From a virus (Duplodnaviria; Caudoviricetes): a stretch of 64,000 bases of DNA. The stretch spans positions 1 through 64,000 of the IMG/VR virus record IMGVR_UViG_3300011977_000415; one strand, 5' to 3'. The position numbers were made by a program, and so were the translations under genes. Positions 18,671 through 40,334 of the stretch are shown here, one piece after another (within the stretch, counting starts at the first letter, position 1; every line of letters begins with the position of its first letter). The notes beneath the pieces were generated by a model. The model was not told the origin of the DNA. It saw only the letters and a program-made list of their open reading frames with translations, and did not search any database.

Positions 18671-18878
18671 TCCTCTTGTCGGGAACTGATTTTTCGTGCA
18701 TCAAAAGACTGCGGAATGAGGGCGATAAGGCAAGAAAACAGACGGAGGAGTTAATGAAATACCCAAATCTTTGATTTGCGGAAAGCTGTCGTTCAGTCCT
18801 CTGCCTGTTAGCATGGCGGTACTTGACCATTCGCCCGGGCAGTAACTTTGCAAAGAAAAATGGGCATCGGCAAGTGGA
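18671..18878 (+). promoter_or_regulatory. long imperfect hairpin A, candidate ssDNA (Frpo-like) promoter
   Basis: Nested pairs cttgtcg/cggcaag, atttttc/gaaaaat, actgc/gcagt, gggcga/tcgccc, aacag/ctgtt, caaatc/gatttg; TAACTTTG at 18843 on the right arm. Confidence 0.65.
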
Positions 18879-19006
18879 ATAGACACTACAAAACAGGAAA
18901 ATCATTGATTTTTAGTGCATTTTTCTTTATTTCTTTCTTTGATTTAGGATAAAATATATAACTTTGCCTCCGAAAAAGTGTCACAAGTGACAGTTTTTCG
19001 TAAAAT

Positions 19007-20269
19007 ATGATAGTAAACAGATATAGATACATAGAACAGTTGAGCCGTTCAAAGAACAACGGGCTCATAAAGATAATCACAGGATTGCGACGTTCAGGCA
19101 AGTCGTTCCTTCTGAAGAAACTCTTTCATCAGCATCTATTGGATGAGGGCGTGAGAGAAGACCATATTCTCGTCATCGACATGGAGAGTAGGAAGAACAG
19201 AGAGTTCAAGAACCCGGACTACCTGTTGGACTGGGTGGAAAAGATGATGATTGACTATGAGACTTATTATATCATCATCGACGAGGTGCAGGAGGTGGAA
19301 GACTTTGTAGAGGTGCTCTCTTCCTTGTCAGTTACCGAAGGGGCGGATGTGTATGTCACAGGCTCCAACTCGCGTTTCCTGTCCTCTGACCTGGTGACGG
19401 AATTCCGAGGCAGAGGTGACGAGATACATGTGTGGCCACTATCCTTCAAGGAGTTCATGACGGTGTATGATGGTTCGAAAGAAGACGGTTGGGCTGAATA
19501 CAGACTGTACGGAGGTTTGCCGCAACTACTTACACAGGTTGGGGATGAGAAGAAGGCTGATTTCCTGCGTCGCCTTTATCGCACGGTATATCTACGTGAC
19601 ATCTACGAGCGGAACAACATAGAACTGAGACCTGAATTTGAAGAATTGTCGAAGACCGTAGCATCCAGTATAGGAGCACCTGTCAATGCACTGAATATAG
19701 CCAATACGTTCAAGTCCGTAAGCAATGTGCAGAGCATAACCGACAAGACAGTGTCGGCTTATCTGGAATATATGCAGGATGCTTTCCTTATCGAAAAATC
19801 CGAAAGGTTCGACATCAAAGGACGGAAATACATAGGTTCGTTGTCCAAGTATTATTATCAGGACGTAGGTCTGAGGAATGCTATTCTGTCGTTCCGTCAG
19901 AGCGAGCCGACACATATCATGGAGAACGTCATCTACAATGAGATGCGTATGCGAGGATGGCTCGTGGATGTGGGTAACGTCTATCATCGAGTGAGGAATA
20001 CGGAAGGAAAGCAGCAGAGGGTGACATTGGAAGTGGATTTTGTCTGCAACAAAGGGAGCGAGCGGATCTACATCCAGTCGGCGTGGCGTATGCCCGATGC
20101 AGAAAAGATGGAACAGGAGAAACGGTCGTTGCGTCTTGTAGATGACTCTTTCCGCAAACTGCTGATCGTGGGAGAACATACCAAGCAGTGGAGCGACGAA
20201 AACGGCATACAGATAATGAGTATATATGACTTCCTGCTTGACTGGTCAAGTACTGAGAAACACGGATAA
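19007..20269 (+). CDS. AAA_14 ATPase with DUF4143 domain
   Basis: GLRRSGKS Walker A, IIIDEVQ, VTGSNS, YGGLP, ENVIYNE, EVDFV. Confidence 0.9.
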   Translation: MIVNRYRYIEQLSRSKNNGLIKIITGLRRSGKSFLLKKLFHQHLLDEGVREDHILVIDMESRKNREFKNPDYLLDWVEKMMIDYETYYIIIDEVQEVEDFVEVLSSLSVTEGADVYVTGSNSRFLSSDLVTEFRGRGDEIHVWPLSFKEFMTVYDGSKEDGWAEYRLYGGLPQLLTQVGDEKKADFLRRLYRTVYLRDIYERNNIELRPEFEELSKTVASSIGAPVNALNIANTFKSVSNVQSITDKTVSAYLEYMQDAFLIEKSERFDIKGRKYIGSLSKYYYQDVGLRNAILSFRQSEPTHIMENVIYNEMRMRGWLVDVGNVYHRVRNTEGKQQRVTLEVDFVCNKGSERIYIQSAWRMPDAEKMEQEKRSLRLVDDSFRKLLIVGEHTKQWSDENGIQIMSIYDFLLDWSSTEKHG

Positions 20270-20312
20270 AAAAAAGATATGCGCATAGAATATGCGTTAA
20301 TACATATATGAT

Positions 20313-20351
20313 TAAGGGAGGGCCTATCCATCACGGACAAGCCCTCCCTTT
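20313..20351. terminator. intrinsic terminator
   Basis: aagggagggc...gccctccctt stem between convergent genes. Confidence 0.7.
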
Positions 20352-20409
20352 CTAAAATTTATCAATGAAAAAAAAGTTTTAGTGCTCTTGTTCGGAGCTG
20401 TATGTCTGG

Positions 20410-21816
20410 CTATAGATACAGCAGGATTCTGGTATGGCGGTTCGCCTCATTGGGCGAGTAATCGTCAATGCCGCCATCGAAAATCTGAGAGATGGTGCCA
20501 TTTTCCATACCACGTTTCATCAGTTCCTCTGCAATGAATCTGGCACGGGAACGGCTGAGGTTATCATTGATGGCTTCACTGCCTGTGGCACTGTCGGCAG
20601 CGCCGATGACCTTAACTTTCAAGCCATATTTCTTGGCGATGCGTGCTACTTCGTCGAGATTGACGAGCTGTGACCTGTTGAGCAACCTGTCAGTGCCAAG
20701 TTCAAAGAAGAAATAGATGGGCGCACCTATGCAAGCCTTTCCTGAGTGGATGAGCGATAGGTAATCGTCTTCCGGCTCACCTTCAGCATTGCCATATTCT
20801 TCTGTACAAGAGGCGGACTCCATGACCTTTGTCTTTTGACCATTACCATACTTGTCTCTCATTCTTGCACGCAGCGAGTTGAGACCGCTGTAGTCGTTTC
20901 GAGGATAGCCATTTGTGACGGAAGAAGCGGCATCGTCAGAAAAGAGGTGGCCGTACTTGTCCAGAAGTCCCTCGATGGCAAGAATCTTGCGCAGCTGCTC
21001 CAGAGTCTGACAATCTCGATCGTGCTGGGCGTGATAGCGGCTGTTGCTGTCAGAAAGGGATGAGGCGTATGCCGAAAGCCATTCGTTCTGTGCGATGTAC
21101 GGGCGAGCGTCTATCACTCGCTTCCAGCCAGTCTTGCCGATGCGGACAGAGAGGCCGAGGGATGCGGACAGCAGATGGTCGCCAAGGCGGTGTGCCTTGC
21201 CATAGCCGTCAAAATCCTGCATGGTGGTCATGTTGCCTATCTCTGCCGTAACAGCAATGCGTGGGGAGAGATGATACTGCCCCTGTATGCCGTAGGAAAT
21301 GGCAAAGGGCTTGTGGGCATTCACCTTGTTGTGCAGCATACCCACGCCCACGTATGGAATGACACTCCATCTGGCAAGAGTGTGTACATCGTCCTTGTAG
21401 AGGTTGCCGAGGACATTCCACATGAAATCAGCACGCAGGTACTGGTAGTCCTGCGAGGAGTTGTTGCAGTCGTTGAACTGCATACCGCCATAGTTCAGAC
21501 GACCGCCGACGGAAGGTGTGAACCATTTGCCGATCGACACGGAGAATGCCGGTTTCATGCGACCGAATAGGTCGTTGCATCCGAGCGGTTTGCCGAGGAA
21601 GACCGTAGTTCCTCCTGCCGCTTGGACAAACCAGTTGTCCGTCCATGGCGAAGCTACCAATGCCCCTTTCATGTAGGAAGGTTTAAGCGGACGAAGCATA
21701 CCGTCTGCCGAAAGTCTGCATACAACGGTGGTGGTGTCCGCCGTGCGGTGATAGTCTTTGGCTTGCGCACCCAATGAAAGGGCGAAGCCAAGGGATAGAA
21801 TAAGTATTTTTCTCAT
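20410..21816 (-). CDS. OmpA family outer membrane protein
   Basis: Signal peptide; DNWFV...GKWFTP beta-barrel; C-terminal GAADSATGS...LSRSRA...NR. Confidence 0.85.
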   Translation of the reverse strand: MRKILILSLGFALSLGAQAKDYHRTADTTTVVCRLSADGMLRPLKPSYMKGALVASPWTDNWFVQAAGGTTVFLGKPLGCNDLFGRMKPAFSVSIGKWFTPSVGGRLNYGGMQFNDCNNSSQDYQYLRADFMWNVLGNLYKDDVHTLARWSVIPYVGVGMLHNKVNAHKPFAISYGIQGQYHLSPRIAVTAEIGNMTTMQDFDGYGKAHRLGDHLLSASLGLSVRIGKTGWKRVIDARPYIAQNEWLSAYASSLSDSNSRYHAQHDRDCQTLEQLRKILAIEGLLDKYGHLFSDDAASSVTNGYPRNDYSGLNSLRARMRDKYGNGQKTKVMESASCTEEYGNAEGEPEDDYLSLIHSGKACIGAPIYFFFELGTDRLLNRSQLVNLDEVARIAKKYGLKVKVIGAADSATGSEAINDNLSRSRARFIAEELMKRGMENGTISQIFDGGIDDYSPNEANRHTRILLYL

Positions 21817-21870
21817 GTTGTTCAATTTAATCTGGTGAATACTATAACAGGTGATACGTGACAGTGCCGC

Positions 21871-23322
21871 TTATCGTTTCTTCCTTTTGCCGGAAGAGGG
21901 GCGCATCATGCGTGCAGCTTTCATCATGCAACGGCGTGCCCAAGCGCGTTCATCCTCGTCATCGTCACGTCCCCATTTGAGGTCGGACGAACTGCCGCCA
22001 CCGCCATGACCTTCGGCAAAGGTGGTGGCATCATCGACGTAGCCGAGGAATAGAAGCGTGGCACAGTACATCACCTCCGTTCCATTCTCCGCAAAGGCCT
22101 GAAGCAGGGAACCGTCAAACACGTCCTTGCCCTCATTGGAAAGCCGTGCCACACGTTCGGAGAACTCGCTGACCATGTTTTCGAGAAGGGCATTTCTGAG
22201 AACGGTGTCCGCACCTTGTCGGATAGTATCGGAATATCTGTGTGCCTCCTGCCGCAACTCCTCCGTGCGCTCCTTCATGGCGGTCATCTCCTCACGCAGG
22301 GCATCGAGCTTGCGGTCAGCCTCTGAGAGCTTCTCCTGCTTGTCGTCCAGTTTCGACTGGATAGCGGACAGTTCCTGCTCCAGCTCTTGGACTTGCTGAC
22401 GGAGAGCATCAGGATTGTCGTGACCTGCAAGAATCTGCCGATGCAATTCAGCAAGTGCCGCCTCCTTCTCAGCCTTCTCCTGCAAGAGGTTGTTGACCAT
22501 TGAGGTGAGTCCTTTTACTCTCCGCTCTGCCAGACGGATGTCCGATTGGAGCGAGGCGAGTGTCCGCTGATGGGTGGCGACGGACTGCTCAATGGTGGTG
22601 CACTGTTCTGACAGCTGGCGGCGGTATTCTTCGGTGGTGCGGTGGCGTGCTCCCGTCTCTGAGACGGAAGTTCCGCGCTCCATGCCCCAACGCTTGTTGA
22701 CATCGGCAAATTCGCTGTGCAGGGCTTTCATCCTGGCAGAAAACTCGTACTTGTCCTTTCCGGCGAATATCTGTTTGTATGCAAACTTGCCGTCCTTGAT
22801 TGGCAAGAGGGTGCAGTGAACGTGCGGATTGGTTTCGTCCAAGTGTAAGATGAAAGCGACGATGTTCTCCTCACCGTATTTGTCCGCAACAAAGCGGTAA
22901 ACATCCTTTGCCCATTCCTCAATGTCCTTGCATCGGGTTAGATGCGAATTGTCCGCTCCGTGAGTGAGATTCACCTTCTGGTCACCGAATGCCAATTCTG
23001 TCATACGTTCTCGTGAGCCTCCGAAGATGAAATTGACCACTGTGCGGAAGCGTGGCTCTGCCAGTCCCTCGTTGGGGTCTTTGATTCCACGGCTCCGCAG
23101 GATGTCTGCCATGCGCTCCGGGATGCTTCGGCTCTTGTCTATAGGACAAACCTTGCCGCCCCGAACCTCGAAGTTGAGCCGCTCACGGCTGCGGTCGTAG
23201 TTGCCTGTTGATTCAGCGGATCCCCAACCCTTTTCCGTCCAACGGCGTTGGTGCTCGTTGCTCTGTGCTGTGGTGATTCCCTTAGATGGTCGGAAATCCA
23301 TAACCTGTTTTGGTGTTGCCAT
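21871..23322 (-). CDS. mobV: MobV/Pre family relaxase
   Basis: NEHQR motif I, NYD..R..LN motif II, HLDETNPHVH motif III, coiled-coil C-terminus. Confidence 0.9.
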   Translation of the reverse strand: MATPKQVMDFRPSKGITTAQSNEHQRRWTEKGWGSAESTGNYDRSRERLNFEVRGGKVCPIDKSRSIPERMADILRSRGIKDPNEGLAEPRFRTVVNFIFGGSRERMTELAFGDQKVNLTHGADNSHLTRCKDIEEWAKDVYRFVADKYGEENIVAFILHLDETNPHVHCTLLPIKDGKFAYKQIFAGKDKYEFSARMKALHSEFADVNKRWGMERGTSVSETGARHRTTEEYRRQLSEQCTTIEQSVATHQRTLASLQSDIRLAERRVKGLTSMVNNLLQEKAEKEAALAELHRQILAGHDNPDALRQQVQELEQELSAIQSKLDDKQEKLSEADRKLDALREEMTAMKERTEELRQEAHRYSDTIRQGADTVLRNALLENMVSEFSERVARLSNEGKDVFDGSLLQAFAENGTEVMYCATLLFLGYVDDATTFAEGHGGGGSSSDLKWGRDDDEDERAWARRCMMKAARMMRPSSGKRKKR

Positions 23323-23392
23323 AACCTATTTCCTTTTATGTGTGTACAACTCTCCTGTCTCCAGCTTGCTGCTTGTAAGGACAGCCTCCCGA

Positions 23393-23459
23393 TGGTCGGA
23401 GACCAAGAGGGGTATTAGGCTACCCAAATTCCCTCATTTCCGACCAACGGGCAAGCCCG
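23393..23459. other. inverted repeats upstream of mobV, candidate oriT
   Basis: TGGTCGGA...TCCGACCA with inner GAGGG/CCCTC, plus a cgggc aa gcccg hairpin; MOB_V oriTs typically lie just upstream of the relaxase gene. Confidence 0.4.
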
Positions 23460-23530
23460 ATTATTTTACAGCAATGGCAGACGTGTAAACACTGTGCCAG
23501 TAGAAAAGAAGAAGCGTTGTACGGTGATTA

Positions 23531-24415
23531 TTAGAGGTTAATACAGCCTTTTGATGGACAGGAGCCCTCTTGGTTGGCTACAATGGCAAGGAACGGTCGG
23601 CAGAGTGACTGAAACTGTGACTTGATGGCTGCGCTTTCCTGATGCAAGGCTGGTGAGCTGCCATCCAATGCCAATTCTGATATTGCCTTTGCCGCCTCGA
23701 TGAATGAGAGCCAGTCTCCTCCCAGGTCTTTGTAAAAGAAGGGAAGAAGGGAGGTAACGAGGGCGTTATCTGTTTCCTGCGAAAGCACCTGATGGAAGGT
23801 GGCTTCGCAGACAGCTGTGAGTGCAGTCATACAAAAGGCGTGTCCTACAGATTCGGGAATGTTTCTTCCGCATGGCACCTTGCCAATTGAATTGCCATTG
23901 TCGGCTTTCTGCAAGATAATGGCTACTTCCTCTGTTGCATCTTCGTAGAGTTGTTCACATTCCGAGGCGCAAGCCGATGCGGACATCTTGCCGCTTCGCC
24001 ATTCGTCCAATGCGGTACACATCTTCTGGCGGAACACATCCAAGGCTGCGTCAATCGGAGAAACGGCAGGTGTCTCAGCCAACATCGGGATGGTGATGAT
24101 TTGGCTCTTCGTGAGACGGGTGACGGAAATCTGGTTCATCTTCTCCAACTGCTCGATGAAGGTGCGGACAGTGGCGCGGTGCCAATGCCAGCATCCTGCC
24201 AGTTCGGTAATGGTGATTACAAACTGCCCGTTGGACAGGCTGAACTCCTGCTTGCACAGATCCTTGGGGATGTACTGTACAGAAGCCTTGTCTACAAGGT
24301 CAAGGTAGGCTTCGAGCTTCGACAGCCTTATCCCGGACCTCTCTTTCAAGAACTCCAACAGGGACATCCGTTCAGACATCTTGCCGGAACTCGTTCTATG
24401 TTTCTGTTTCTTCAT
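23531..24415 (-). CDS. hypothetical winged-helix protein
   Basis: GQFVITITELAGCWHWHRATVRTFIEQLEK wHTH-like motif. Confidence 0.65.
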   Translation of the reverse strand: MKKQKHRTSSGKMSERMSLLEFLKERSGIRLSKLEAYLDLVDKASVQYIPKDLCKQEFSLSNGQFVITITELAGCWHWHRATVRTFIEQLEKMNQISVTRLTKSQIITIPMLAETPAVSPIDAALDVFRQKMCTALDEWRSGKMSASACASECEQLYEDATEEVAIILQKADNGNSIGKVPCGRNIPESVGHAFCMTALTAVCEATFHQVLSQETDNALVTSLLPFFYKDLGGDWLSFIEAAKAISELALDGSSPALHQESAAIKSQFQSLCRPFLAIVANQEGSCPSKGCINL

Positions 24416-24494
24416 TTCAATAATCTGTTTGGTGAATACTGTTGTTTGTCGCCAGCTCCATTATACAAAAGGAACGGCATGATACAGGTGATAC

Positions 24495-24989
24495 TTAATA
24501 GTAGTATATGATGAGCATTTCTGTGTCTTCGAGGAGCATCTTGCGGTCAGCCTTGTTCTTCCACAGCGATATGACTATGCGCGAGGGATAGAACAGTGAT
24601 GCCAGAAGGACAAAGGAGATGGTGACAGCAAGCGTGAACAGATGAGGAGTGAAGACAAACACCACTGCCGCCAACGCGGCGATGCAGAAGGGTGTCCGCT
24701 CCTCGTGCAGACGCTGTAGCCACCTCTCCACATCCATAAAGACAAAGAATATGGCAAACGCTATGGTGGAAGCCACTACGCCTATGTCGTTATAGTGTAC
24801 ACAGAGGTAGAGGAAGTGGAACACGTACAGCAGGATGAGCAGCATCAACCGGTAGAGCTTCCTTGCTGTCACAAGCGCGGTCATGCGCAGATAGAACCGT
24901 GTCATAAACTGTCTGCGGCTTCTGTGCAGAATCATCGTCACAAAGAAGAACGCTGACATCAGGATGAGAAACAGTATCTTACTTGTCAT
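24495..24989 (-). CDS. hypothetical membrane protein
   Basis: Several TM helices. Confidence 0.7.
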   Translation of the reverse strand: MTSKILFLILMSAFFFVTMILHRSRRQFMTRFYLRMTALVTARKLYRLMLLILLYVFHFLYLCVHYNDIGVVASTIAFAIFFVFMDVERWLQRLHEERTPFCIAALAAVVFVFTPHLFTLAVTISFVLLASLFYPSRIVISLWKNKADRKMLLEDTEMLIIYYY

Positions 24990-25392
24990 AATATGTATAG
25001 CATGTGAATAATGGAAGTGGACTCAGGTCGGGCTGGACGACACCGTGTGTGGCAGTGGATATGATACGCTCCACATCCTCCAGTGTCAGTTCTCCCTTGA
25101 TTATTCTCTGACGGAAAGCTCCGTCGGTTGTCCGAAGGCTCTTGATAGCCTGTTCCAAGTCGTACTCGGCTATCTGCCACACTTGCCCTCTCGTGTAGGG
25201 GAAATGATGGTGGATGGCCTTGACCACAAGCACACGGCTGAGGATGTCGGTCATTCTGCCGTTCCTGACTATCGTGTGGTTGCGGACAGTGGCGATGCTC
25301 TCAATCTCCAGCCATGTGCGGTGACGGTCGAGAAGATGGATAATCTTCATGTAAAGCGTTTCCTTCATCAGATGGTCGGGAGCTTGTGGCAT
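24979..25392 (-). CDS. hypothetical protein (start uncertain)
   Basis: ORF in minus-strand operon. Confidence 0.55.
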   Translation of the reverse strand: MPQAPDHLMKETLYMKIIHLLDRHRTWLEIESIATVRNHTIVRNGRMTDILSRVLVVKAIHHHFPYTRGQVWQIAEYDLEQAIKSLRTTDGAFRQRIIKGELTLEDVERIISTATHGVVQPDLSPLPLFTCYTYYDK

Positions 25393-25470
25393 GACTTTGG
25401 CCTTTGTTGTGGACAACAGAATGGAGCGTTGTTGCGGTAGAACAGGACTGTCATCTGGCAAATGTAACTT

Positions 25471-25917
25471 TCAAATGAAGTCGAGCAGGACTTCCTCCTT
25501 GGGCTTCATGTATTTGAAGAACCCGTTCTTGCAATGCAGACTGAGGTCGAGGCATACATCTGCCGACATGTGCTCCAGCGAGTCATAGATGGTCACTTTT
25601 ATCTGGCTGACCATGCCACGCTCATCTGTGGAGCCGTTGACCTTGAACATCCGTCCGAAAGAAGGGTTGGAATAGGCACAGCAGCTGTGTCCGAACTCCG
25701 TATGACGGCTTGGAATGTGGTGATAGAGGATTATCATTTCCATCTCGTCTTCGAGCATATCCATCACCTCCTCTATCGTGAAAGGGGTGTTCAACTGGAA
25801 AGTAAGAAGCACGTAATCGTCATACTTGACAGGCTTCTCCATCTTGCGCTTGTCCAGCAGTTCTGGCAACTGCAAAGGCACGACGGCAAGGAAATCATCG
25901 CAAAACTGTTCTAACAT
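25471..25917 (-). CDS. hypothetical protein
   Basis: ORF in minus-strand operon. Confidence 0.65.
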   Translation of the reverse strand: MLEQFCDDFLAVVPLQLPELLDKRKMEKPVKYDDYVLLTFQLNTPFTIEEVMDMLEDEMEMIILYHHIPSRHTEFGHSCCAYSNPSFGRMFKVNGSTDERGMVSQIKVTIYDSLEHMSADVCLDLSLHCKNGFFKYMKPKEEVLLDFI

Positions 25918-25941
25918 AATCGTATTCTCTGTTTGGGGTGT

Positions 25942-31786: not shown

Positions 31787-31951
31787 GGTTTATACTGCTG
31801 TCTTGAAATATAGGCAGCAGTATCTTTATTTTTATCAAAATGTTAAGGTGAGGAATCTGAATATCCTTGCCTACGGACACAATTATCCGCTGCATCTTTT
31901 TGGGGTAAGGTGCAGACGTATGGCTGTCAGCGTATCTTGGTTTAAAGACGC

Positions 31952-32065
31952 TTAGCGGTCACGGCGGAAGTCGTTTCGTCTCTCTCCGCCGAACAAAGCT
32001 CTGAGCACATTGCCCAAAGCTCCGAACACGAAGTAGCAAACGATGATTGCAACAATATCGTCCAT
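31952..32065 (-). CDS. 37-aa single-TM peptide (absent from the ORF track)
   Basis: Translated by hand: MDDIVAIIVCYFVFGALGNVLRALFGGERRNDFRRDR; directly downstream of the SLOG gene. Confidence 0.45.
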   Translation of the reverse strand: MDDIVAIIVCYFVFGALGNVLRALFGGERRNDFRRDR

Positions 32066-32086
32066 AAGCATTTTCTGTTTTATGGG

Positions 32087-32578
32087 TTATACACTATTAT
32101 GAAGATTCACTATGTCCAATCCCTGCCTCTTGGCTTCTCTGACGGTGTAGAACGTGCCGCCCTTGGGATTGCCATCGAAGTAGGCTATGAGACGTGAACT
32201 GCGGTTGACCATATAGTCGTTGCGCCTCAGAAGGCAGCCATTGTAGTATTGCTCGCTCAATACGACCACGTCATCCACGATGCGCAGGATGGCATCATAC
32301 TTGGCTTGCTCTTCCTTGCTCCACCGGTCAGACTGACCACGGAACGGCACAACGGCTATCACCTGCAAGTCCTTCAACTCGCATTGCAACGAAAGGGCGG
32401 CTTCTGCCGCCAGCAGGTCAAATCCCATTGCCATGCCACAATAGAAATACCGGTAGCCGTCGGCATACGCCTTGGCTATCTCCGATTTGAGACATTGCTT
32501 CAACTCCCTCCGCTTGGCGAAAGGTACGCTGCGGTGTCCGCTGAAGCATACGGACACTGCCTTGTCGTACTTTGTCAT
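32087..32578 (-). CDS. SLOG superfamily protein (DUF1273/YspA-like)
   Basis: CFSGHR, GMAMGFDLLAAE, RRNDYMV, GGTFYTV. Confidence 0.85.
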   Translation of the reverse strand: MTKYDKAVSVCFSGHRSVPFAKRRELKQCLKSEIAKAYADGYRYFYCGMAMGFDLLAAEAALSLQCELKDLQVIAVVPFRGQSDRWSKEEQAKYDAILRIVDDVVVLSEQYYNGCLLRRNDYMVNRSSRLIAYFDGNPKGGTFYTVREAKRQGLDIVNLHNSV

Positions 32579-32581
32579 ACT

Positions 32582-33148
32582 TTACCTTACTTTATAATGT
32601 GTGCGTGCGAGGAACATACCGCCAATAACACATGCCCCGAGCCTTTCGAGTTGGTTGGCATACTTGGCATAGCTGAGACCCTTGGTTATCACATCGTCAA
32701 AGACCAACACCATTTTGTTGTCGAAGAACGGCTCATCAAACTCAACGACATTCGCCTTGCGGACTTCATCCTCGTTCTTGCGGTTATCGTGGATGGTCTT
32801 ACGCTCTCCGCATACCCTCACGTGCTCGTAGCCGTTTTCCGCTCCTGTCAATTCACACACCCTGTGGCAGAAAGCCTTGTAGCGGAGTTCGTTGCTCTCG
32901 CTTGTGGATGCTGGAACGGGGGCGAAGACGATGTTCACGCAACCCTTGCCGTAGAGTGTCAGCATATTCTCTGCGGTGCGCTGCGCCACTTCCTCGTAGG
33001 CTCTTCCGTCCTTGAAGTCAAACACTAATTGTCTGTCGGCAATCTCCTTCTCACCCACATTGCGGATGCGTGCGGGATAGTATTTGCAGAACCAAGTCTG
33101 AGGCTTGTCTAACTGCTTTTGGATTTGATAGTCATTCTTGTGTGCCAT
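32582..33148 (-). CDS. phosphoribosyltransferase (ComF-like PRTase domain)
   Basis: VPAS, VLVFDDVITKGLS PRPP-binding motif; ATG at 33148. Confidence 0.8.
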   Translation of the reverse strand: MAHKNDYQIQKQLDKPQTWFCKYYPARIRNVGEKEIADRQLVFDFKDGRAYEEVAQRTAENMLTLYGKGCVNIVFAPVPASTSESNELRYKAFCHRVCELTGAENGYEHVRVCGERKTIHDNRKNEDEVRKANVVEFDEPFFDNKMVLVFDDVITKGLSYAKYANQLERLGACVIGGMFLARTHYKVR

Positions 33149-33182
33149 TGCTCTTATGTTTTTTCTTCCCTTATTTCGGAGG

Positions 33183-33378
33183 CTTTTCCTGCCTGCCCAA
33201 GGGATATTTTTTGCTTTCCAAGAGTGATGGCGATCAAAAAGCCAAATCGGGAGCGAAAAATACGCTCTGCACGCAGAGGAAGATTTTTCGGTCAAATGCA
33301 ATGGACGATTTGGTGTTTGAACAATCGCCAGCATTACCTTTGCAAAACAATATCCGCAGCGGCAAGGCAGGCGAAAAG
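33183..33378 (+). promoter_or_regulatory. long imperfect hairpin B, candidate ssDNA promoter
   Basis: cttttc/gaaaag, ctgcct/aggcag, ggatatt/aatatcc, ttttgc/gcaaaa, tggcgat/atcgcca, ccaaatcg/cgatttgg, cgaaaaat/atttttcg, ctctgc/gcagag; TACCTTTG at 33335. Confidence 0.7.
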
Positions 33379-33559
33379 AAATCTGTTATGTAAAAGAGGA
33401 AACGGGCGGGATGGCGTGGGGCGAAGCTGTATATGGGGAAGGACGATAGTTGATATGAGGGAAAAAGAGAAAATCTTGTAATAGGGAACGACATTGCCTT
33501 TTATCAGCATGGAGACAGTCCTACAAGCAGAGAAAACTATTGCCCTAAAAATGAGTTGG

Positions 33560-33640
33560 ATAGTATTTTCTAAAAGTAGTATCGACTACGAATAGTATAA
33601 TAGTCGAATAGTTTTTACTACCATACTACGGATAGTAAAG
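33560..33640. repeat. TAGTA/TACTA repeat cluster downstream of the par operon (parS-like site 2)
   Basis: atagtattttctaaaagtagtatcgactacgaatagtataatagtcgaatagtttttactaccatactacggatagtaa. Confidence 0.6.
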
Positions 33641-33699
33641 TCTGTTTATAGAAGAGATAGCGGTATCATCGTCTGTTCGGCGATGATACCGCGCGGCAC

Positions 33700-33978
33700 T
33701 CATGTGTCATGCCGCTTTAGGTATTCTGTCATTGCCTCATTGACAATATCACGCAAGGACATCCCTTTCTTGATGGCGAGGTACTTCATCCTCGTGTGGA
33801 TGCTCTTGTTGATAAGGAAATTGCAATGCACCGGCACTTCGGTAGTCTCAGAAACAGACACAGGTGGTGCTGGTGTAGTTTCTGTGACTATCTGCTCCTT
33901 ACTCGGCTTCTTTGTGGAAGAAAGGAGTCCGTTGAGACCGCCTTTCATTCCCTCTTTCAACATACTGCTCTTGCTCAT
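33700..33978 (-). CDS. ribbon-helix-helix centromere-binding protein (ParG-like)
   Basis: Flexible N-terminus then HCNFLINKSIHTRMKYLAIKKGMSLRDIVNEAM; directly downstream of parA. Confidence 0.75.
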   Translation of the reverse strand: MSKSSMLKEGMKGGLNGLLSSTKKPSKEQIVTETTPAPPVSVSETTEVPVHCNFLINKSIHTRMKYLAIKKGMSLRDIVNEAMTEYLKRHDT

Positions 33979-33985
33979 GGCTATG

Positions 33986-34741
33986 CTATTTTAAGTTTAA
34001 CACTTCTTTTGCCAAAGACATATAATCACTGGCACCATTGGATTTGGGATTATACTCAAAGATAGTCTTGCCGTTGATGGGTGCTTCTGCCAAAGCCACA
34101 TTATCACGGATGACGGTCTTGAAAACCTTCTCGTGAAAACTGTCATTGACGATTTCCCTCACGCTTCGGTTCAACGTCTTGCGGCGATCGAACTGGGTGA
34201 TGACGATGCCGCCCACTTTAAGGTTGGAGTTGAGCCGCTCCTGAACGATGCGGATGATGTCCATCAACTTTGCCATACCTCTCATGGCAAGGTATTGCGC
34301 TTGAACAGGGATGATGATGTAGTCGGCTGCGGTGAGGGCATTCAAGGTCAGCAAGCCCAATGACGGTGGACAGTCGATGATGATGTAGTCGAAATGCTCT
34401 TTGGCGATGGCTTTGGTGATAAGTCCCTTCAAGATAAGCTCCCGTCCCGGCTCGCTGATAAGCTCTAACTCAGCCGCAGACAGGTCAAGGCATGAGGGTG
34501 AGACGGTGATGCCGTTGTGCAACTTGACCAACGGCAAGGTGTACTGTCCACACATTGCGCCATAGACTGTCTGTTCTTCCTCGATGGACAATCCCAAGGC
34601 TTCCGTGAGGTTGGCTTGTCCATCCATGTCAATAGCCAAGACGTTCTTCTTACTCAGTTGCAGAGCTGCCGCAAGGCTTACTGCGGTCGTACTTTTCCCT
34701 ACACCACCCTTGTGATTTAATACTGCAATTATCTGTGTCAT
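33986..34741 (-). CDS. parA: ParA/Soj Walker-type partition ATPase
   Basis: KGGVGKST, IDMDGQANLT, IIDCPPSLG. Confidence 0.92.
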   Translation of the reverse strand: MTQIIAVLNHKGGVGKSTTAVSLAAALQLSKKNVLAIDMDGQANLTEALGLSIEEEQTVYGAMCGQYTLPLVKLHNGITVSPSCLDLSAAELELISEPGRELILKGLITKAIAKEHFDYIIIDCPPSLGLLTLNALTAADYIIIPVQAQYLAMRGMAKLMDIIRIVQERLNSNLKVGGIVITQFDRRKTLNRSVREIVNDSFHEKVFKTVIRDNVALAEAPINGKTIFEYNPKSNGASDYMSLAKEVLNLK

Positions 34742-34746
34742 AACAT

Positions 34747-34858
34747 GATACTACTATTAGTGAATACTACTTTACTATTCTACTACTGATAGTACATACT
34801 AACCATAGTAAAAGCGGATTTACTACGATTAGTACGTACTACTCTCAGTTGATACTAC
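34747..34858. repeat. TAGTA/TACTA repeat cluster upstream of parA (parS-like site 3 / operator)
   Basis: About ten TACTA/TAGTA units in ~110 bp. Confidence 0.6.
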
Positions 34859-34860
34859 CC

Positions 34861-35286
34861 TCAGAAGGGAAGGTCTTCGCTCTTGTCCTGCGGTGCATCG
34901 GCTGGCGGTACGGGAGCCTCGCCCTCTGCCTTGGCTGCCTTGCGTGCCTTTGTTGCAGGTGTGTCGGTTGCATCCTTCTTCCCTGCATTGACAAAGGCGA
35001 TGGAGTCAGCTATGATGCTATGCTGTATGTGGTTCTCTCCGTTGCGGTCTGTCCAAATGGAAGAAGTCAGTGTGCCTTCCACAAGCACCATACGACCCTT
35101 GGTGAGGTATTCAGCCAAACGGATATGGTTCTCCTTGCTGCTCTTCACCCTTACCCAAGTGGTGATTTGCTTGCCCTTACTGTAGTCGTCCACTGCGATG
35201 TCAACAGCCATGAATGTTCCGTGTGTACCTGTGATGACGCGGCAATCCTTTGCTCCGATGCGTCCGATAGTGTGAGTGTAAATCAT
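34861..35286 (-). CDS. ssb: single-stranded DNA-binding protein
   Basis: IGRIG, TTWVRV, YLTKGRMVLVEGTL, acidic tail EDLPF. Confidence 0.9.
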   Translation of the reverse strand: MIYTHTIGRIGAKDCRVITGTHGTFMAVDIAVDDYSKGKQITTWVRVKSSKENHIRLAEYLTKGRMVLVEGTLTSSIWTDRNGENHIQHSIIADSIAFVNAGKKDATDTPATKARKAAKAEGEAPVPPADAPQDKSEDLPF

Positions 35287-35303
35287 AATGTGAAAATGTT
35301 ATA

Positions 35304-35340
35304 GTGGCAAGTTGGTTAGACTTGCCGTTACCTTGTTATT
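35304..35340. repeat. 37-bp direct repeat copy 1 (internal hairpin GGCAAGT/ACTTGCC)
   Basis: gtggcaagttggttagacttgccgttaccttgttatt; one mismatch to the copy at 35709. Confidence 0.9.
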
Positions 35341-35696
35341 TAAATGACTTTTCTTGTTGATTGAACATAAGCTATTGCTTCATTCATAATTTCTGCTCGT
35401 GACCTACTCTTGTTATCTTGCATCCACTCATCAATTTCAGATTTGAGGAACATGATACGTTTCCCCTTCTTATGGAATGGTATTTGTTTATTGCTTGTCC
35501 AACAATAGATTGTGTGTTCAACTGGATGGGTAGGGAGATACTCACTCAATTCGGAAACACTAAGCCATTCCAATCCCTTATCGGGCTGAATTTGAGTCAT
35601 TAGTGTGGAAAACTTTTCTTCTAAAATCTCCAGCTTGTTTATTACTAATGACAATGCTGATGGCAAGTCATTAAAACTCAATATTTGCTTTTCCAT
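35340..35696 (-). CDS. excisionase-like HTH_17 DNA-binding protein (AT-rich)
   Basis: WLSVSELSEYL...TIY.W.....IPF.K.GKR..F.KSEI.EW. Confidence 0.8.
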   Translation of the reverse strand: MEKQILSFNDLPSALSLVINKLEILEEKFSTLMTQIQPDKGLEWLSVSELSEYLPTHPVEHTIYCWTSNKQIPFHKKGKRIMFLKSEIDEWMQDNKSRSRAEIMNEAIAYVQSTRKVI

Positions 35697-35708
35697 ATCA
35701 ATATATGT

Positions 35709-35745
35709 GTGGCAAGTTGGTTAGGCTTGCCGTTACCTTGTTATT
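35709..35745. repeat. 37-bp direct repeat copy 2
   Basis: gtggcaagttggttaggcttgccgttaccttgttatt. Confidence 0.9.
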
Positions 35746-35974
35746 AATATCCTTTCTTCGTCTGCCTTGTATTGGCGACAAAAGACTTGTTGCTGCCTGT
35801 GAGACTGATAGAGCCGCAATTAACAAACTCTCCGTCGGAATAGACTCTGTACTTCTGTCCGCTTACCTCATGCTTCTGTTTGATGCGCTCTCGCATCCAC
35901 TTCTTGGCTGCGGTCAATGAGCAAAAGGTCTCGCTCTCCTTGGTCGTCTCGTCATATACGATGCACTGGGTCAT
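35744..35974 (-). CDS. hypothetical protein
   Basis: ORF in operon downstream of hairpin C. Confidence 0.6.
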   Translation of the reverse strand: MTQCIVYDETTKESETFCSLTAAKKWMRERIKQKHEVSGQKYRVYSDGEFVNCGSISLTGSNKSFVANTRQTKKGY

Positions 35975-35982
35975 ACATGCTC

Positions 35983-36537
35983 CTACTTCATCCATGCACC
36001 TATACTCGACGTGACATAGTCCAACTGACCGCCAAATATGTCGCTTGGCTCTATGTCGTATTGTCCATCCCTCACTTCCTTGTCCTCTCCAAGAAGCGAC
36101 AAGTTTCCGTCGGCATCCAAACGTGCTGCGTCTATGACGATGTCACGAGGCTCGTCAAAGAGATAACCTGCCACGATGGGCTGCTCTCCCTCGAAATGCA
36201 CCTCAAAGCCTCCGTCCACCTCCGTGCCGTACTTGCGAAGAGCCGCTTTCAGCTCGTCCTGCTCCCGGTGCTGCAATGCCTGGAGTTGTCCGTGGATAGT
36301 GAGGTCTTGCAGTTCTGCCTCTCGTTTGGTGTGGGTTGCCTCGCCGGTCTTGCAGTCGATGTCATACTTGTGGTAAACCACTGGGATATGGTCTGCCGAT
36401 GTGACAAGCCATGTGATGTTGTTCACTGAGAAGCCCTGTCTGGTGAGGAACTCCTCGATGTCTGAGCCGAGAAGGTGGTCGGCTACGTCAAGATACTCGA
36501 TGCGTGCGTCAGCATCATGCAGGATGATAATCTTCAT
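35983..36537 (-). CDS. hypothetical protein
   Basis: ORF with AT-rich leader, downstream of hairpin C. Confidence 0.7.
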   Translation of the reverse strand: MKIIILHDADARIEYLDVADHLLGSDIEEFLTRQGFSVNNITWLVTSADHIPVVYHKYDIDCKTGEATHTKREAELQDLTIHGQLQALQHREQDELKAALRKYGTEVDGGFEVHFEGEQPIVAGYLFDEPRDIVIDAARLDADGNLSLLGEDKEVRDGQYDIEPSDIFGGQLDYVTSSIGAWMK

Positions 36538-36688
36538 TGCCTTTCTATTTTTAGTGATACAAATAAGTTTGTCGCCCATGTCGCTGGACTTGTTTAACTA
36601 CGTTGAAGAAACTTACGCTCAGCATAGTGAATAAATTCCCTCTGCGTTCGCTTAACCGTTTCTTTCTCTTCCCTCCTTTCGAGACCTT

Positions 36689-36876
36689 TCAGCCTGTGGA
36701 GGGATATTTTCTGCTCCCACAAGCCGCAAGAAAAGACATAAAGACAAATTATGTGTGAAGAATACTCTTTTCCGAGGAAAAGGAAGATTGTTCACAGTCA
36801 CAAGACCTCAAGCAGAATTTGACGATTGTCTCAGACGCGGCTAACTTTGCAGGAAATATGCCTACCACTGCGCTGA
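36689..36876 (+). promoter_or_regulatory. long imperfect hairpin C, candidate ssDNA promoter
   Basis: tcagc/gctga, atattttctgc/gcaggaaatat, agccgc/gcggct, agaca/tgtct, caaatt/aatttg, tgtgaa/ttcaca, cttttcc/ggaaaag; TTTG(36818)-N20-TAACTTTG(36842) full consensus on the right arm. Confidence 0.7.
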
Positions 36877-36957
36877 TTGGAAGAAGATTATTGATATTGG
36901 CTGCAAGAGGAATGATGTGTTATATATAAAGAGGTAAGAAGAAAGATTGAAACAGTA

Positions 36958-37940
36958 AGGGTGGGCAGTGAAGTGTTTGCAGGTCTGCTGTACCGACATA
37001 AAGCGAGTGTGTTGGCTGACCGGGATGCAAGTCATCAAAGCTTCAGCCTTGATAGCTTGTAGCACGGACAGACAATTCTCTCGCGTCGGTACTTCGGCAT
37101 ACTGTCAGCTTTGGCTAATAGCAACGTGTTGCCATCAGCCAAGGATGTCTGTATGACGACAGACCATGTAACGCTTCGCAAAGGCGTGGGGCAAAGCAGT
37201 ATAATTTAGAAGTAGATAGTAACGTATATCAGGCAAGAAGAGACAGTTGCGCAACGGACAAATCGGGCACTCCTGTCAGCATGACAAATGTGCCTTGTCC
37301 TTGCCGCAGGACACTGAGGCAGATTGGACGTAGCAGACATGTCTGCCACATTCAATATGCCTGAGTGGACAAGAACTGCCTCTTGTATAGCAGAAGAGAA
37401 ATTGTAAAACAGTTGATTAGTGGTAAAGGTGGTATGGGTGGGCAGAATGGCATTACACGGACATTGCCGAAGCCCGATAATGGGACAGCCAGACAGCAAT
37501 AAAGGCAGTTATCAGAAGTGTCAGTTTCTGATAGTGACATTGTTGGCTGCCTGTCACATGGGATTCGTGCGGTGTCCGTACAGTAATGCCGTTCTGAAGG
37601 TGTGGGGCGAAGCGATACAACGCACTTGGACGAAACCACCGCTTATAACAGAAAATATTTTGCAGTCAAAGAGAAGAAGAATAGTAAAGCAGGTGTGGGT
37701 GGGTAGTGAAGCTGTCGCAAGATTGACGGTCTGAATATCAAGGCGAGTGGATAGCCAGTAAAGGACACAATTATCAGAAGCCTCGGCTTCGGCATCTTGT
37801 GGCATAGATGGCAGTCCTCTCGCGTTCAGACCTTGGCATACTGTCTTTCTTGGCTAATAGCGACTTTGTCGCCATCAGCCGGGAATATCTGTATGCCAAC
37901 CATCTTGGTGACGTTTCGCAAATGGTGAGGGACGAAGTGG
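36958..37940 (+). other. array of four structured non-coding modules (two are diverged ~220-bp direct repeats)
   Basis: Modules 36968-37179, 37234-37385, 37443-37596 and 37706-37919; compensatory changes between modules 1 and 4. Confidence 0.65.
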
Positions 37941-38089
37941 TTAGAATAAAGGAAGACGGCGTTGCCGTTATGGTTAATAAATGCACATGGTTGTTATTAG
38001 AGAAGATTATCACACGCTATAACAGCAGATTGATGTCCCTGAGCAAAACAAAAGCGACCCGAAGGTCGCCTTGTTATGGAGAGGAAAGG

Positions 38090-38476
38090 CTATTTCTTGC
38101 CTTTCTTGGTTGCTGGCTTGGCCGGCTCTTCCGCAGGAGTCTCCTCCTTGTCGGGACACTCGTAGAACTTGGTTGCAACCATGATGATTCTGGAGTGCTT
38201 CACGCCATCCTTGTCTGTCCACTCCTCTGGCTTGAAGAAACCCTCGACGGTGAGCAACGTGCCCTTGGTGAGCTTGTCGAATGATTCGGTGTGCTCGTTC
38301 TTGCGCCATGCCTCCATATTCATGAAAGCCGATACGCGGTTGGTTTCCTCGCCGTTCTTCTCCTGACGGCCTACTGCCAATGAGAAGCGTGCTACGCTGG
38401 CGTTTGCGAACTGACGGATTTCTGCATCCTTACCTACGAAACCTGAAACTGTGAAGTTGTTCTCGATCTTTTTCAT
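38090..38476 (-). CDS. ssb: single-stranded DNA-binding protein lacking an acidic tail
   Basis: SGFVGKDAEIR, ARFSLAV, LTKGTLLTVEG, WTDKDG; ends in basic KKGKK. Confidence 0.8.
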   Translation of the reverse strand: MKKIENNFTVSGFVGKDAEIRQFANASVARFSLAVGRQEKNGEETNRVSAFMNMEAWRKNEHTESFDKLTKGTLLTVEGFFKPEEWTDKDGVKHSRIIMVATKFYECPDKEETPAEEPAKPATKKGKK

Positions 38477-38478
38477 TT

Positions 38479-38728
38479 TGAATTGAATTTAAAAGTGAAA
38501 CTTAATTTTTACATGCATTCAAAAGCAGGGATGTGGCACCATGTGGGAAGCACCATGAAAATCGTTCGCAATACTCTTTTTGTCGTTGGCGGTAAGGGAG
38601 AAAAAGGAAGATTACGCACTATTTTATTGGTCACAGCGATAGCGGCCACACAAGAAGGAGGAAGTCCTTCGCAGCATCACGCTACCTTTGCATGGTAAAA
38701 ATAAGTGGCTTTCAAATAGCTCAATTCA
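38479..38728 (+). promoter_or_regulatory. long imperfect hairpin D, candidate ssDNA promoter
   Basis: tgaattga/tcaattca, atttttac-atgca/tgcat-g-gtaaaaat, tgtgg/ccaca, tctttt/aaaagga; TACCTTTG at 38683. Confidence 0.65.
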
Positions 38729-39305
38729 GAAAAAGACGGGGCCAAACAATGGAACAAAGGTTGTAAGCAAGGAGGCAATCCGTATGCAACAGACAGGGGC
38801 ACTGCTATGGCTGTATGCCTGGAGAAACGAAGCGGGAAATCCGACCTTACAGCTGTATCATCAGAAGAGTGAGGAGCATGAACACTGATGCACGATGAAC
38901 GACAAGCCTAAGGGTCAGCTTAGCAATAGAGGCATCAAGCCAAAAGAGGACAGACATCAGAGGATTGGCGATAGCACTGTCATCATGCTAAGACCAAGTT
39001 CTGTGTCCGACAAGGAAGAGTCGCAAAAGACAGACGAGTAAAACCAAAAGGCGAAATGACCATTCCTATAACAAGGTACAGAGACGCTTAAAACGGCGAA
39101 GGGACTTTGGCGACGTATCGCTATACAGGTGTCGAAGCATCGCTTCTATAACAGGACTGGAGCAAGTGAGCAAACCGCACAACTTGCTCCCAAGGTATTT
39201 CAGTTACAACAGCCATAACCTCATTGGAGGATTGTCCTAAAAGAGTTTTTGCAGTCAAAGGAAGAAAGAGTCTGCAAGCCACATAGCCAACAGACTCTCT
39301 CCTGA

Positions 39306-39488
39306 TTATTCACAGATGACAACATCATCCTTGTACTCCGTCACTTCCTTGCCGTTGATGAGCTGGACAATGACCTCACAACCCAAGTCCTCGACAATCG
39401 TTCCCTCTGTCTGACCTCTTCGGGGATAAAGCAAGGTGCAGAAACACCCTACAACGCCGTCCAACTGCTCCATGTCTATCGTTGCCAT
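39306..39488 (-). CDS. small hypothetical protein
   Basis: 60-aa ORF coupled to the upstream gene; agagtctg/cagactct hairpin downstream. Confidence 0.55.
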   Translation of the reverse strand: MATIDMEQLDGVVGCFCTLLYPRRGQTEGTIVEDLGCEVIVQLINGKEVTEYKDDVVICE

Positions 39489-39503
39489 ATCCGTTCCTCC
39501 TTG

Positions 39504-40088
39504 TTAGCCGAATGTGATTGGATTGATGCAGAAATTCGTGTCCTCTGCCTCATACTCGTATTCATTGATGAAGTCAATCATCTTCTGTTCGCTTCTTCCG
39601 TCCTGTGAGACACCAGTCTTCTCACACCACAACTTGATAGCATCACCAAAGGTGGAGTAAGCACCCTCACAATCCTCAAAGAGTTCTCCGTATGCAGTGA
39701 CGTAGCACTCTTCGGGGAAGAAGTCGTTCTCATCGTGCGTATAGAAGATGTCGCAACCTGGCTCAACCTCTCGCCAACTGATTGAAAGTTCATCGCCAAG
39801 TGCCTTGTTCACCTCCTCAAAGAACAAGTCGCATGAAGACCAAGCACTTTCGGTGTCAAAGGACAAGAGGGCATAATCGTCTTCCACGTTCTCCTCATAC
39901 TCTGCCCAATAGATGTGTCCTCTCACCGAGATGCCTTTCTTCTCGTAGTCAATGCCATAGTGTTCTGCCAAGAGATACAGATACACATTATTACTGTTCA
40001 CCTCCAACTCTTGGAGTGTGTTCCAAAGGTCTGCCACGGCTTTGCGTGAGCCTGTCACCTTGTACTGAGTGTCGCAAATGTTAGCCAT
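39504..40088 (-). CDS. YubB/DUF1281-like ferredoxin-fold protein
   Basis: MAN.C N-terminus and FDTESAWS...W...EPGC motif resembling the YubB F.TAW.P...EPG pattern. Confidence 0.5.
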   Translation of the reverse strand: MANICDTQYKVTGSRKAVADLWNTLQELEVNSNNVYLYLLAEHYGIDYEKKGISVRGHIYWAEYEENVEDDYALLSFDTESAWSSCDLFFEEVNKALGDELSISWREVEPGCDIFYTHDENDFFPEECYVTAYGELFEDCEGAYSTFGDAIKLWCEKTGVSQDGRSEQKMIDFINEYEYEAEDTNFCINPITFG

Positions 40089-40115
40089 AAGATAAAATTT
40101 TTATTTTCTTCCCTT

Positions 40116-40334
40116 ATGTAGAACCAACTACCATCGGGATTGATTAAAGAATTATGTTGCCCCAAAAGGTGTTATGGCTCATCAATGCAAGGTTTTGCCG
40201 TCAAATACTACCTCTGCCACAATCAGAGCGTGGAGATTTCACGGACAAACCACAGGCACCGACCTTGCAGGATGAACGCCATGACAGGTACCTTTGCAAC
40301 ACAATTCTTATCAAAGCCCGATGGGGTGGTACAT
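40116..40334 (+). promoter_or_regulatory. long imperfect hairpin E, candidate ssDNA promoter
   Basis: ccatcggg/cccgatgg, ttgat/atcaa, aagaatt/aattctt, tgttgc/gcaaca, aaaggt/accttt, tgttatggc/gccatgaca, tgcaaggt/accttgca; CTTG-N21-TACCTTTG(40289). Confidence 0.7.

Follow-up and report, generated by a model that had tools for sequence, protein, structure and literature searches.

Candidate single-stranded-DNA promoter hairpins in front of presumed early genes in a mobile element of Bacteroidales

In this work we are presenting an analysis of five long hairpins from the window, that is the whole analysed stretch of 64 kb, which makes up the first part of the 105-kb IMG/VR record IMGVR_UViG_3300011977_000415 carrying a provirus label. 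Each of the hairpins, named here A to E, stands in front of genes on the minus strand and bears in its right (3') arm a Bacteroidota-type promoter box on the plus strand, hence pointing away from these genes. What could be the use of a promoter turned in the wrong direction? An earlier note on this DNA had proposed that such hairpins act as promoters when the plus strand is single-stranded and folded. Our analysis leads to a similar answer: an integrative mobilizable or conjugative element of Bacteroidales probably uses the five hairpins as promoters on single-stranded DNA. In the course of conjugation they would most likely turn on ssb and genes of the anti-restriction type, and this only as long as the DNA lacks its second strand.

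The folding was carried out with DNA parameters and the z scores were calculated against dinucleotide shuffles. All five regions fold into the long imperfect hairpins that had been claimed, with the following folding free energies (dG):

Hairpin A, 18671-18878, plus strand: dG -33.6 kcal/mol, z -2.6; minus strand dG -27.0 kcal/mol
Hairpin B, 33183-33378, plus strand: dG -44.7 kcal/mol, z -5.9; minus strand dG -38.0 kcal/mol
Hairpin C, 36689-36876, plus strand: dG -37.8 kcal/mol, z -7.0; minus strand dG -29.1 kcal/mol
Hairpin D, 38479-38728, plus strand: dG -36.7 kcal/mol, z -3.4; minus strand dG -37.3 kcal/mol
Hairpin E, 40116-40334, plus strand: dG -54.7 kcal/mol, z -9.8; minus strand dG -52.4 kcal/mol

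The plus strand is more stable by 6.6 (A), 6.7 (B), 8.7 (C) and 2.3 kcal/mol (E), and the difference for D is -0.6 kcal/mol. The preference for plus-strand folding was therefore retained in four of the five copies, D being a tie; a long imperfect hairpin with a preference for one strand is what is expected of a single-strand promoter. The arms are too imperfect for an exact-seed inverted-repeat search, which found no hairpins. No Rfam family matched the window at gathering score, and nothing relevant appeared at E-values up to 5 between positions 17500 and 42000. Copies of an origin of transfer (oriT) and terminators were considered as well, and both were ruled out by the length of the hairpins, their copy number and the conserved promoter.

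An exact TA[AC]CTTTGCA was found on the plus strand in the 3' arm of all five hairpins, starting at 18843, 33335, 36842, 38683 and 40289. The promoter motifs and the conserved motifs near the apex, all on the plus strand, are located as follows:

Hairpin A, plus strand: -7 box 18843-18850; TTG 18823-18825, spacer 17; apical variant ATAC (18759)/GGAAAGCT (18780)
Hairpin B, plus strand: -7 box 33335-33342; TTTG 33309-33312, spacer 22; AATAC 33259; GGAAGATT 33278
Hairpin C, plus strand: -7 box 36842-36849; TTTG 36818-36821, spacer 20; AATAC 36761; GGAAGATT 36782
Hairpin D, plus strand: -7 box 38683-38690; no TTG at -33; AATAC 38570; GGAAGATT 38606
Hairpin E, plus strand: -7 box 40289-40296; CTTG 40264-40267, spacer 21; AATAC 40204; GGAGATT near 40232

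The placing of the Bacteroidota -7 box on the plus strand of the right arm was thus exact in five of five hairpins, and the spacings read earlier, TTTG-N20 in C and CTTG-N21 in E, were both recovered. The consensus of the Bacteroides primary sigma factor is said to have been given by Bayley et al. (2000) as -33 TTTG/-7 TAnnTTTG, and the hairpins share the same two elements at similar spacing with ordinary promoters of this type. The latter lie on the gene strand and outside long hairpins, while the five hairpin boxes point away from the genes they precede. In the window such ordinary promoters occur at 1531, 27102 and 27270, on the gene strand, 30-60 nucleotides (nt) from the start codon and outside strong folds. 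Ordinary minus-strand promoters in duplex DNA had been named as an observation that would speak against the proposal; upstream of the five operons the minus strand holds no exact TAnnTTTG, and where the box would be mirrored on the gene strand the sequence is degenerate. Moreover, no exact TAnnTTTG is present anywhere on the minus strand of 34065-43912, though every credible gene there is minus-sense.

The architecture of the hairpins can be followed from the base upward. A variable base stem is succeeded by a conserved TGC of the 5' arm, pairing with GCA after the box. Then comes an internal loop, in which AnnTTT of the box faces a loop of 5-9 nt having no fixed sequence and never the complement of the box, while the T of TA is paired. 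This is in agreement with the bulge that had been noticed at the same place of each left arm: in every copy the arm is unpaired opposite the box and not complementary to it. Above the box loop there is a covarying spacer helix, followed by the sequence-conserved duplex CAAGGTT/GACCTTG which holds the -33 TTG, by further covarying helices, by an AAT/ATT pairing, by an AC/GGAAG internal loop and by a covarying apical stem-loop. The arrangement AATAC ... stem-loop ... GGAAGATT near the apex, conserved in the alignment of the five copies, is a feature beyond those listed before. Three examples on the plus strand, all with the AAT/ATT pairing and with AC opposite GGAAG, are:

33259-33285, plus strand: apical loop of hairpin B
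36761-36789, plus strand: apical loop of hairpin C
38570-38613, plus strand: apical loop of hairpin D

The AC/GGAAG loop lies about 50 nt upstream of the box and is invariant across otherwise unrelated subfamilies; it could be an analogue of an upstream element or a binding site of some factor. In sigma-70-type initiation the open complex of RNA polymerase holds the upstream element as duplex and the non-template strand of the melting element as single-stranded DNA. By analogy, the hairpin architecture can be described as a mimic of the open promoter complex. Both host promoter elements are rebuilt in the stem, in which the 3' arm corresponds to the non-template strand and the melting element is mismatched, D lacking the -33 TTG.

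Genes on the minus strand stand behind each of the five hairpins, which holds the earlier observation true for all copies:

17951-18618, minus strand: operon behind hairpin A; a 99-amino-acid unknown protein and a DUF2958 protein (Pfam)
32087-33148, minus strand: operon behind hairpin B; a weak PRTase-like protein (188 amino acids) and a YpsA-family SLOG protein (Pfam, NCBIfam)
33700-36579, minus strand: operon behind hairpin C; an unknown protein of 184-198 amino acids, an 83-amino-acid protein, HTH_17, SSB, ParA and a ParG-like 92-amino-acid protein (Pfam; RefSeq annotation of an identical record)
38090-38476, minus strand: SSB gene behind hairpin D (Pfam); start codon 3 nt from the hairpin base and about 34 nt past the mirrored start site
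39306-40088, minus strand: genes behind hairpin E; unknown proteins of 194 and 60 amino acids (open reading frames, no family found)

The gene labels proposed earlier were only partly retained. DUF2958, SLOG, HTH and ssb (twice) are supported by Pfam, and the PRTase label is weak (E-value 0.01); the YubB-like label for 39504-40088 was rejected, as neither Pfam nor NCBIfam supports it. At its end the hairpin C operon has a strong stem (33660-33692). The protein behind hairpin C was met at only four loci in species genomes, and no relatives of it were found among viral contigs. The attachment of hairpin A to the DUF2958 operon is illustrated by a relative in Bacteroides stercorirosoris (genome G001), in which three consecutive tyrosine-recombinase genes of the recombinase-in-trio type are inserted exactly between the hairpin and the operon, which fits hairpin A belonging to this operon:

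L013:2912-6178 (G001:C65:82912-86178): three-recombinase insert

A DUF2958 homologue is found also behind a related hairpin in L050. As a separate observation, RefSeq places small plus-strand hypothetical proteins inside hairpins B, D and E of L149 (NZ_OY725908.1; 8734-8985, 14105-14290 and 15746-15958), and these are probably artefacts of the inverted repeats. The record NZ_OY725908.1, although filed as a plasmid, also holds ordinary chromosomal genes.

Relatives of the hairpins were looked for with a pattern in which the apical AATAC/GGAAGATT motif is joined to the -7 box. This joint pattern matched 4 of 401 Bacteroidales species genomes (the reversed control none) and more than 116 metagenome stretches, whose records come mostly from human-gut, rumen, other gut or fermentation samples. 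The metagenome statistics rest on the matches listed (more than 116), among which there were 75 unique cores, 64 of them with a hairpin enclosing both motif and box. The enclosing hairpins are long and stable (at least 150 nt, dG of -30 kcal/mol or lower) in 57 of the 64 cases, and these were used for clustering. The number of enclosing hairpins in which the box strand folds better than its complement is likewise 57 of 64, by 5.5 kcal/mol on average. Favouring of the plus strand by G-T wobble pairs, proposed earlier for the five copies, was borne out in the family alignment: 122 G.T against 35 A.C on the box strand, with G.T prevailing in 27 rows and A.C in 2. The covariance-model score on the opposite strand is far lower, 43 versus 206 bits.

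Covariation among homologues was one of the checks set in the earlier note, and it turned out to be strong both in one subfamily and in the family alignment. The subfamily, cluster 1 (14 sequences, 71-98% identical, aligned with MAFFT), gave 73 pairs in RNAalifold with 96.6% of cells paired; 21 pairs changed on both sides, compared to 3.5 +/- 1.6 in shuffled and 1-5 in slid controls. These double changes come mostly from one divergent member, yet they are spread over about 18 pairs. A covariance model built from cluster 1 retrieved other subfamilies, hairpin B of the window and copies missed by the strict pattern. In the 35-row family alignment with 63 pairs, 88.8% of cells are paired (58.7% shuffled, 37-46% slid), there are 591 double-change cells against 180 shuffled and the covariation score is 0.627 against 0.164, with four to six pair types at many positions. 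The model brought up eight new hairpin types that had not been selected through the box; five carry the exact box and three a box with one mismatch, and at least five of the eight have (GA)CCTTG or CTTG about 19-22 nt upstream of it.

Of the window's own copies, hairpin B has orthologues in L002-L004 and scores 41.9 bits against the covariance model R1, and hairpin C has orthologues in the same three loci at 90-97% identity. E-type relatives were located by model R1 in L043, L059, L087 and L100, and the D-type cluster consists of six members, each in front of SSB. A phylum-wide model search gave no match in 150 other genomes; with 18 candidates scored per genome it missed the known copies of G001 as well, and it has no bearing on distribution. 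As a side observation, a cluster-1-type hairpin stands beside two integrase genes in L146 (6722-6894; G355:C25:169721-169893), with the box decayed to TAACTTCT and the fold kept despite this (-49.2 versus -39.6 kcal/mol).

What stands behind the hairpins elsewhere? In the metagenome stretches the neighbour was taken as the gene behind the 5' arm on the opposite strand, and it was assigned by homology. SSB is found at 10 loci, spanning several unrelated hairpin subtypes, and the PRTase-like protein at 8 metagenome loci; other genes are ArdA, DUF4326, DUF6926, LPD11, YpsA-SLOG and DUF2958. The model also matches two CTnDOT-like conjugative elements of B. stercorirosoris: in one of them the hairpin precedes PcfK and PcfJ, in the other DUF4120, DUF4121, an N6 DNA methylase and a SprT-like protein. 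The ssb, anti-restriction and establishment genes are oriented for transcription from the box strand. When the start site was placed 7 nt past the box and mirrored onto the 5' arm, all 35 homology-supported start codons (35/35) fell downstream of it, leaving leaders of at least 30 nt with a median near 70 nt. The 35 include SSB genes that start within the 5' arm itself.

The strand which enters the recipient can be approached through the relaxase gene of the element:

21871-23322, minus strand: MobV-family relaxase gene (Pfam Mob_Pre; NCBIfam NF041497, 186 bits versus a cut-off of 100)

The relaxase gene is typically the last to enter (PMC11541004). From this we derive that the relaxase gene has the transferred strand as its template, and that genes which can be read from that strand should be co-oriented with the relaxase gene. 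The MobV gene of the window is co-oriented with all hairpin-driven genes, and the same was seen for relaxase or coupling-protein genes in L081 (MobV), L045, L082, L056, L032 and L069, as well as in both CTnDOT-like elements of G001. Counted by relaxase genes, the co-orientation is seen in seven contexts, the window included, and it would agree with the plus strand as the transferred one. No assignable inverted repeat with a nick motif was found as an oriT upstream of the MobV gene, at 23323-23530, and a literature search on Bacteroides oriT polarity gave nothing usable.

The course of events may be pictured as follows. The plus strand would enter the recipient single-stranded and each hairpin region would fold back, recreating a host promoter of the sigma-A type with the 3' arm as non-template strand. 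In this fold -33 GACCTTG/CAAGGTT would lie in duplex, the spacer would be the covarying helix, and the AnnTTT core of the box (TAnnTTTG) would remain unpaired in the internal loop above the TGC/GCA clamp, forming a pre-melted site resembling an open complex. RNA polymerase would initiate about 7 nt past the box with the 5' arm as template, leave the base of the hairpin and enter the minus-sense genes, that is ssb, HTH, ParA, PRTase-SLOG, DUF2958 and the unknowns, before the complementary strand exists. Such start at the box of the folded strand would give transient expression, and in duplex DNA the promoter would be inactive or redirected. The same transcripts may in addition prime synthesis of the complementary strand, as has been reported for Frpo. 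Strand bias, covariation, the strand of the box, gene types, start-codon positions and relaxase orientation all agree with the earlier reading of the hairpins as zygotic single-strand promoters; the transfer of the plus strand and the initiation by RNA polymerase on it are inferred.

Several points weigh against this interpretation. Hairpin D has neither the -33 TTG nor a strand preference, and hairpin A is statistically the weakest fold with z of only -2.6. The metagenome set was selected by a pattern which contains the box, so conservation of the box there is partly circular, and the 35-row alignment was fitted to the model structure, which favours that structure, though the margin is still large. 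Co-orientation of genes is common in mobile elements and hence weak evidence for the transferred strand. In the relative from B. stercorirosoris the genes of a MOBP-type relaxase and of a coupling protein are placed 40-60 kb to the left and point the opposite way, and they may or may not be part of the same element; no CTnDOT-type TraJ was found on that contig. Hairpins of some relatives lie away from oriT, downstream of the coupling-protein gene or at the lagging end, and in the CTnDOT-like elements the copy follows the relaxase gene at a distance of about 19 kb, with the tra genes in between. Finally, the -33/-7 pair is consensus-like and could fire in duplex DNA as well, in the rightward direction that leads away from the genes; this would differ from what has been reported for Frpo.

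The last point can also be turned into an extended version of the single-strand promoter, which we regard as doubtful: the direction of transcription would be switched, so that the folded strand drives the establishment genes leftward and the duplex is read rightward, antisense to the upstream operon, with the apical AC/GGAAG loop as a docking site for some factor of the host or of the element whose action is limited to the folded form. If this were true, conversion to duplex would not only remove the early promoters, it would actively silence the early operons.

Among the remaining explanations the one that survives best, although we find it rather improbable, is that the hairpins are single-strand origins of the sso/ssi type, where a short RNA primer for the complementary strand is made and no mRNA. 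RNA-polymerase-dependent single-strand origins comprise the ssoA type of rolling-circle plasmids, the sso of ICEBs1 and the minus-strand origin of filamentous phages; in these, folded single-stranded DNA offers a promoter-like duplex to host RNA polymerase, which makes a short primer, and they are not placed for gene expression. Synthesis at ssoA ends at a signal in the loop. At the Bacteroidales hairpins, on the contrary, it would leave the hairpin base into genes. The fold, the strand and the promoter logic are nevertheless the same, several copies over about 22 kb suit discontinuous priming, a second family of plus-strand-biased structures lies between C and D, and Frpo itself was first described as a primer site as well (as cited in PMC12672017). 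Such origins do not account for the fact that every copy lies 30-150 nt before a correctly oriented gene, that the positions of the copies follow operon starts and not a regular spacing, and that the genes behind them are those known to be needed early. Priming and transcription may coexist, and the tight link to gene starts favours transcription.

The boxes might also be taken for ordinary rightward promoters of duplex DNA, from which antisense or small regulatory RNAs directed at the upstream operon would arise, with the repeats serving another purpose such as protein binding or termination. We consider this improbable, even though the -33/-7 pair is close enough to the consensus to be recognised in duplex and an open-reading-frame-poor, structured region of 1 kb, folding better on the plus strand, follows box C. 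An ordinary promoter would have no need of the pairing and covariation which join the sequence following the box to the far 5' arm, and the core of the box is specifically kept unpaired. On the right side a converging gene usually ends within 5-20 nt and no plus-strand open reading frame is conserved, and with 190-320 nt the hairpins far exceed the length of a terminator. That the hairpins are structured RNAs, either leaders of the minus-strand operons or plus-sense non-coding RNA, and not DNA structures is very improbable: covariation alone cannot separate RNA from single-stranded DNA and RNA-library contigs cover the region, but a minus-sense leader is excluded by the strand bias, a plus-sense RNA would need a promoter inside minus-strand genes and would carry a purposeless complete promoter in its own 3' arm, and no Rfam family matches.

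The single-strand promoter reading has its closest precedent in class 1 promoters of enterobacterial plasmids, Frpo1/Frpo2 of F and ssi1-3 of ColIb-P9/pESBL (Masai and Arai 1997, as cited in PMC11541004 and PMC12672017). As in these, the strand that is the template of ssb and anti-defence genes forms a long imperfect hairpin, two promoter elements are recreated in the stem, several copies are present, each heading an early operon, and the direction of the genes is such that only the folded strand can drive their expression. No sequence relation was seen, though this is without direct comparison to Frpo sequences. The Bacteroidales hairpins differ in using -33 TTG/-7 TAnnTTTG instead of TTGACA/TATAAT, in placing the -7 core in a strictly conserved internal loop with the TGC/GCA clamp, in the conserved AAT-AC/GGAAG-ATT internal loop near the apex, and in their hosts, which are integrative elements as well as plasmids.

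Six early operons of pESBL and F each have a hairpin promoter; these promoters fall into three unrelated classes and have support from rapid amplification of 5' cDNA ends (5'-RACE; PMC12672017), a precedent which supports several hairpin promoters each heading an early operon. The class 2 and 3 promoters of pESBL and F (klcA, ardA, M.EcoGIX) are unrelated hairpins that do the same job on one plasmid, and they were mined independently of homology as hairpins before early operons, by the logic used here; they are supported in E. coli by 5'-RACE and early-conjugation RNA sequencing (PMC12672017). In the leading-region survey Frpo-like sites were sought with sigma-70 hexamers, and Bacteroid* is not mentioned there (PMC11541004). 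The belief that no such family had been described in the phylum agrees with our literature search for Frpo or single-strand promoters in Bacteroides/Bacteroidota, in which no relevant paper was found. The Bacteroidales hairpins would then be a phylum-adapted version of a device shown only in E. coli plasmids.

Conjugative and mobilizable elements carry antibiotic-resistance and polysaccharide-utilisation genes among gut Bacteroidales, and to our knowledge their establishment in a new cell is almost unstudied. If the proposed function is true, expression at an early stage from the entering single strand would not be confined to enterobacterial plasmids and would have arisen convergently, on a very different sigma consensus. 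The reading of TAnnTTTG by the Bacteroides sigma factor could then be studied on the conserved bubble, a natural pre-opened substrate, the hairpins would flag unknown genes as likely early establishment or anti-defence genes, and the motif together with the covariance model would make a practical finder of such gene sets in gut metagenomes.

The element itself could be delimited by comparison. Positions 800-40616 of the window are syntenic, at 92-97%, with a chromosomal element of B. stercorirosoris DSM 26884, in which ordinary chromosomal genes follow beyond the point matching about 40616; hairpin E thus lies about 280 nt from the right end of the mobile element. Its gene content includes two ArdC-type genes, lysozyme/M23, ParA, two SSB, HTH_17 and the MobV-family relaxase. 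A 7.5-kb block is identical in records of B. finegoldii and Phocaeicola massiliensis, and isolate assemblies under ten species labels, and also a pig metagenome, contain the whole stretch 33000-40650 (all sampled words), which points to very recent spread of one element. Matches of the plasmid search are almost only to Bacteroidales (Bacteroides, Parabacteroides, Phocaeicola), with one Butyricicoccus record. RNA-library contigs from three runs span most of 33000-40650; they bear no strand, start or level information, may be DNA carry-over, and two of the three runs gave identical tables, possibly being one data set filed twice. The sole raw-read run had no reads on the stretch.

Some further side observations were made. 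The open-reading-frame-poor kilobase between hairpins C and D (36958-37940) contains the second family of structured repeats, not described in the earlier note:

About 36968-37180, plus strand: second-family repeat
About 37428-37640, plus strand: second-family repeat
About 37706-37920, plus strand: second-family repeat

Their plus-strand preference amounts, for example, to -54.3 versus -42.8 kcal/mol. They share strings including GGCATACTGTC and CTTGGCTAATAGC, lack TAnnTTTG, and could serve for single-strand priming or belong to a non-coding RNA located downstream of box C.

The part beyond the element's right end, 40617-64000, contains Fic/RhuM, AbiEi, a 1577-amino-acid DEAD+UvrD helicase, AAA_14 genes, an integrase (53422-54696) and RecT/SMC-like genes. 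This region is probably a different integrated element or prophage, in which case the provirus label would not apply to the left 40 kb.

A unit of about 50 nt (TTTACCTTGGTTAGCT..TATATATATGCTAACC..) that is present repeatedly was noticed at 40461-40513, not far from where the element ends on the right. Related copies of the TTTACCTTGGTTAGCT/TATATATATGCTAACC unit occur near 40387-40423 and 39237-39272 of the window and in G001:C65 at 110148-110200 and 110270-110320, and these right-end repeats may be a set of recombinase arm sites.

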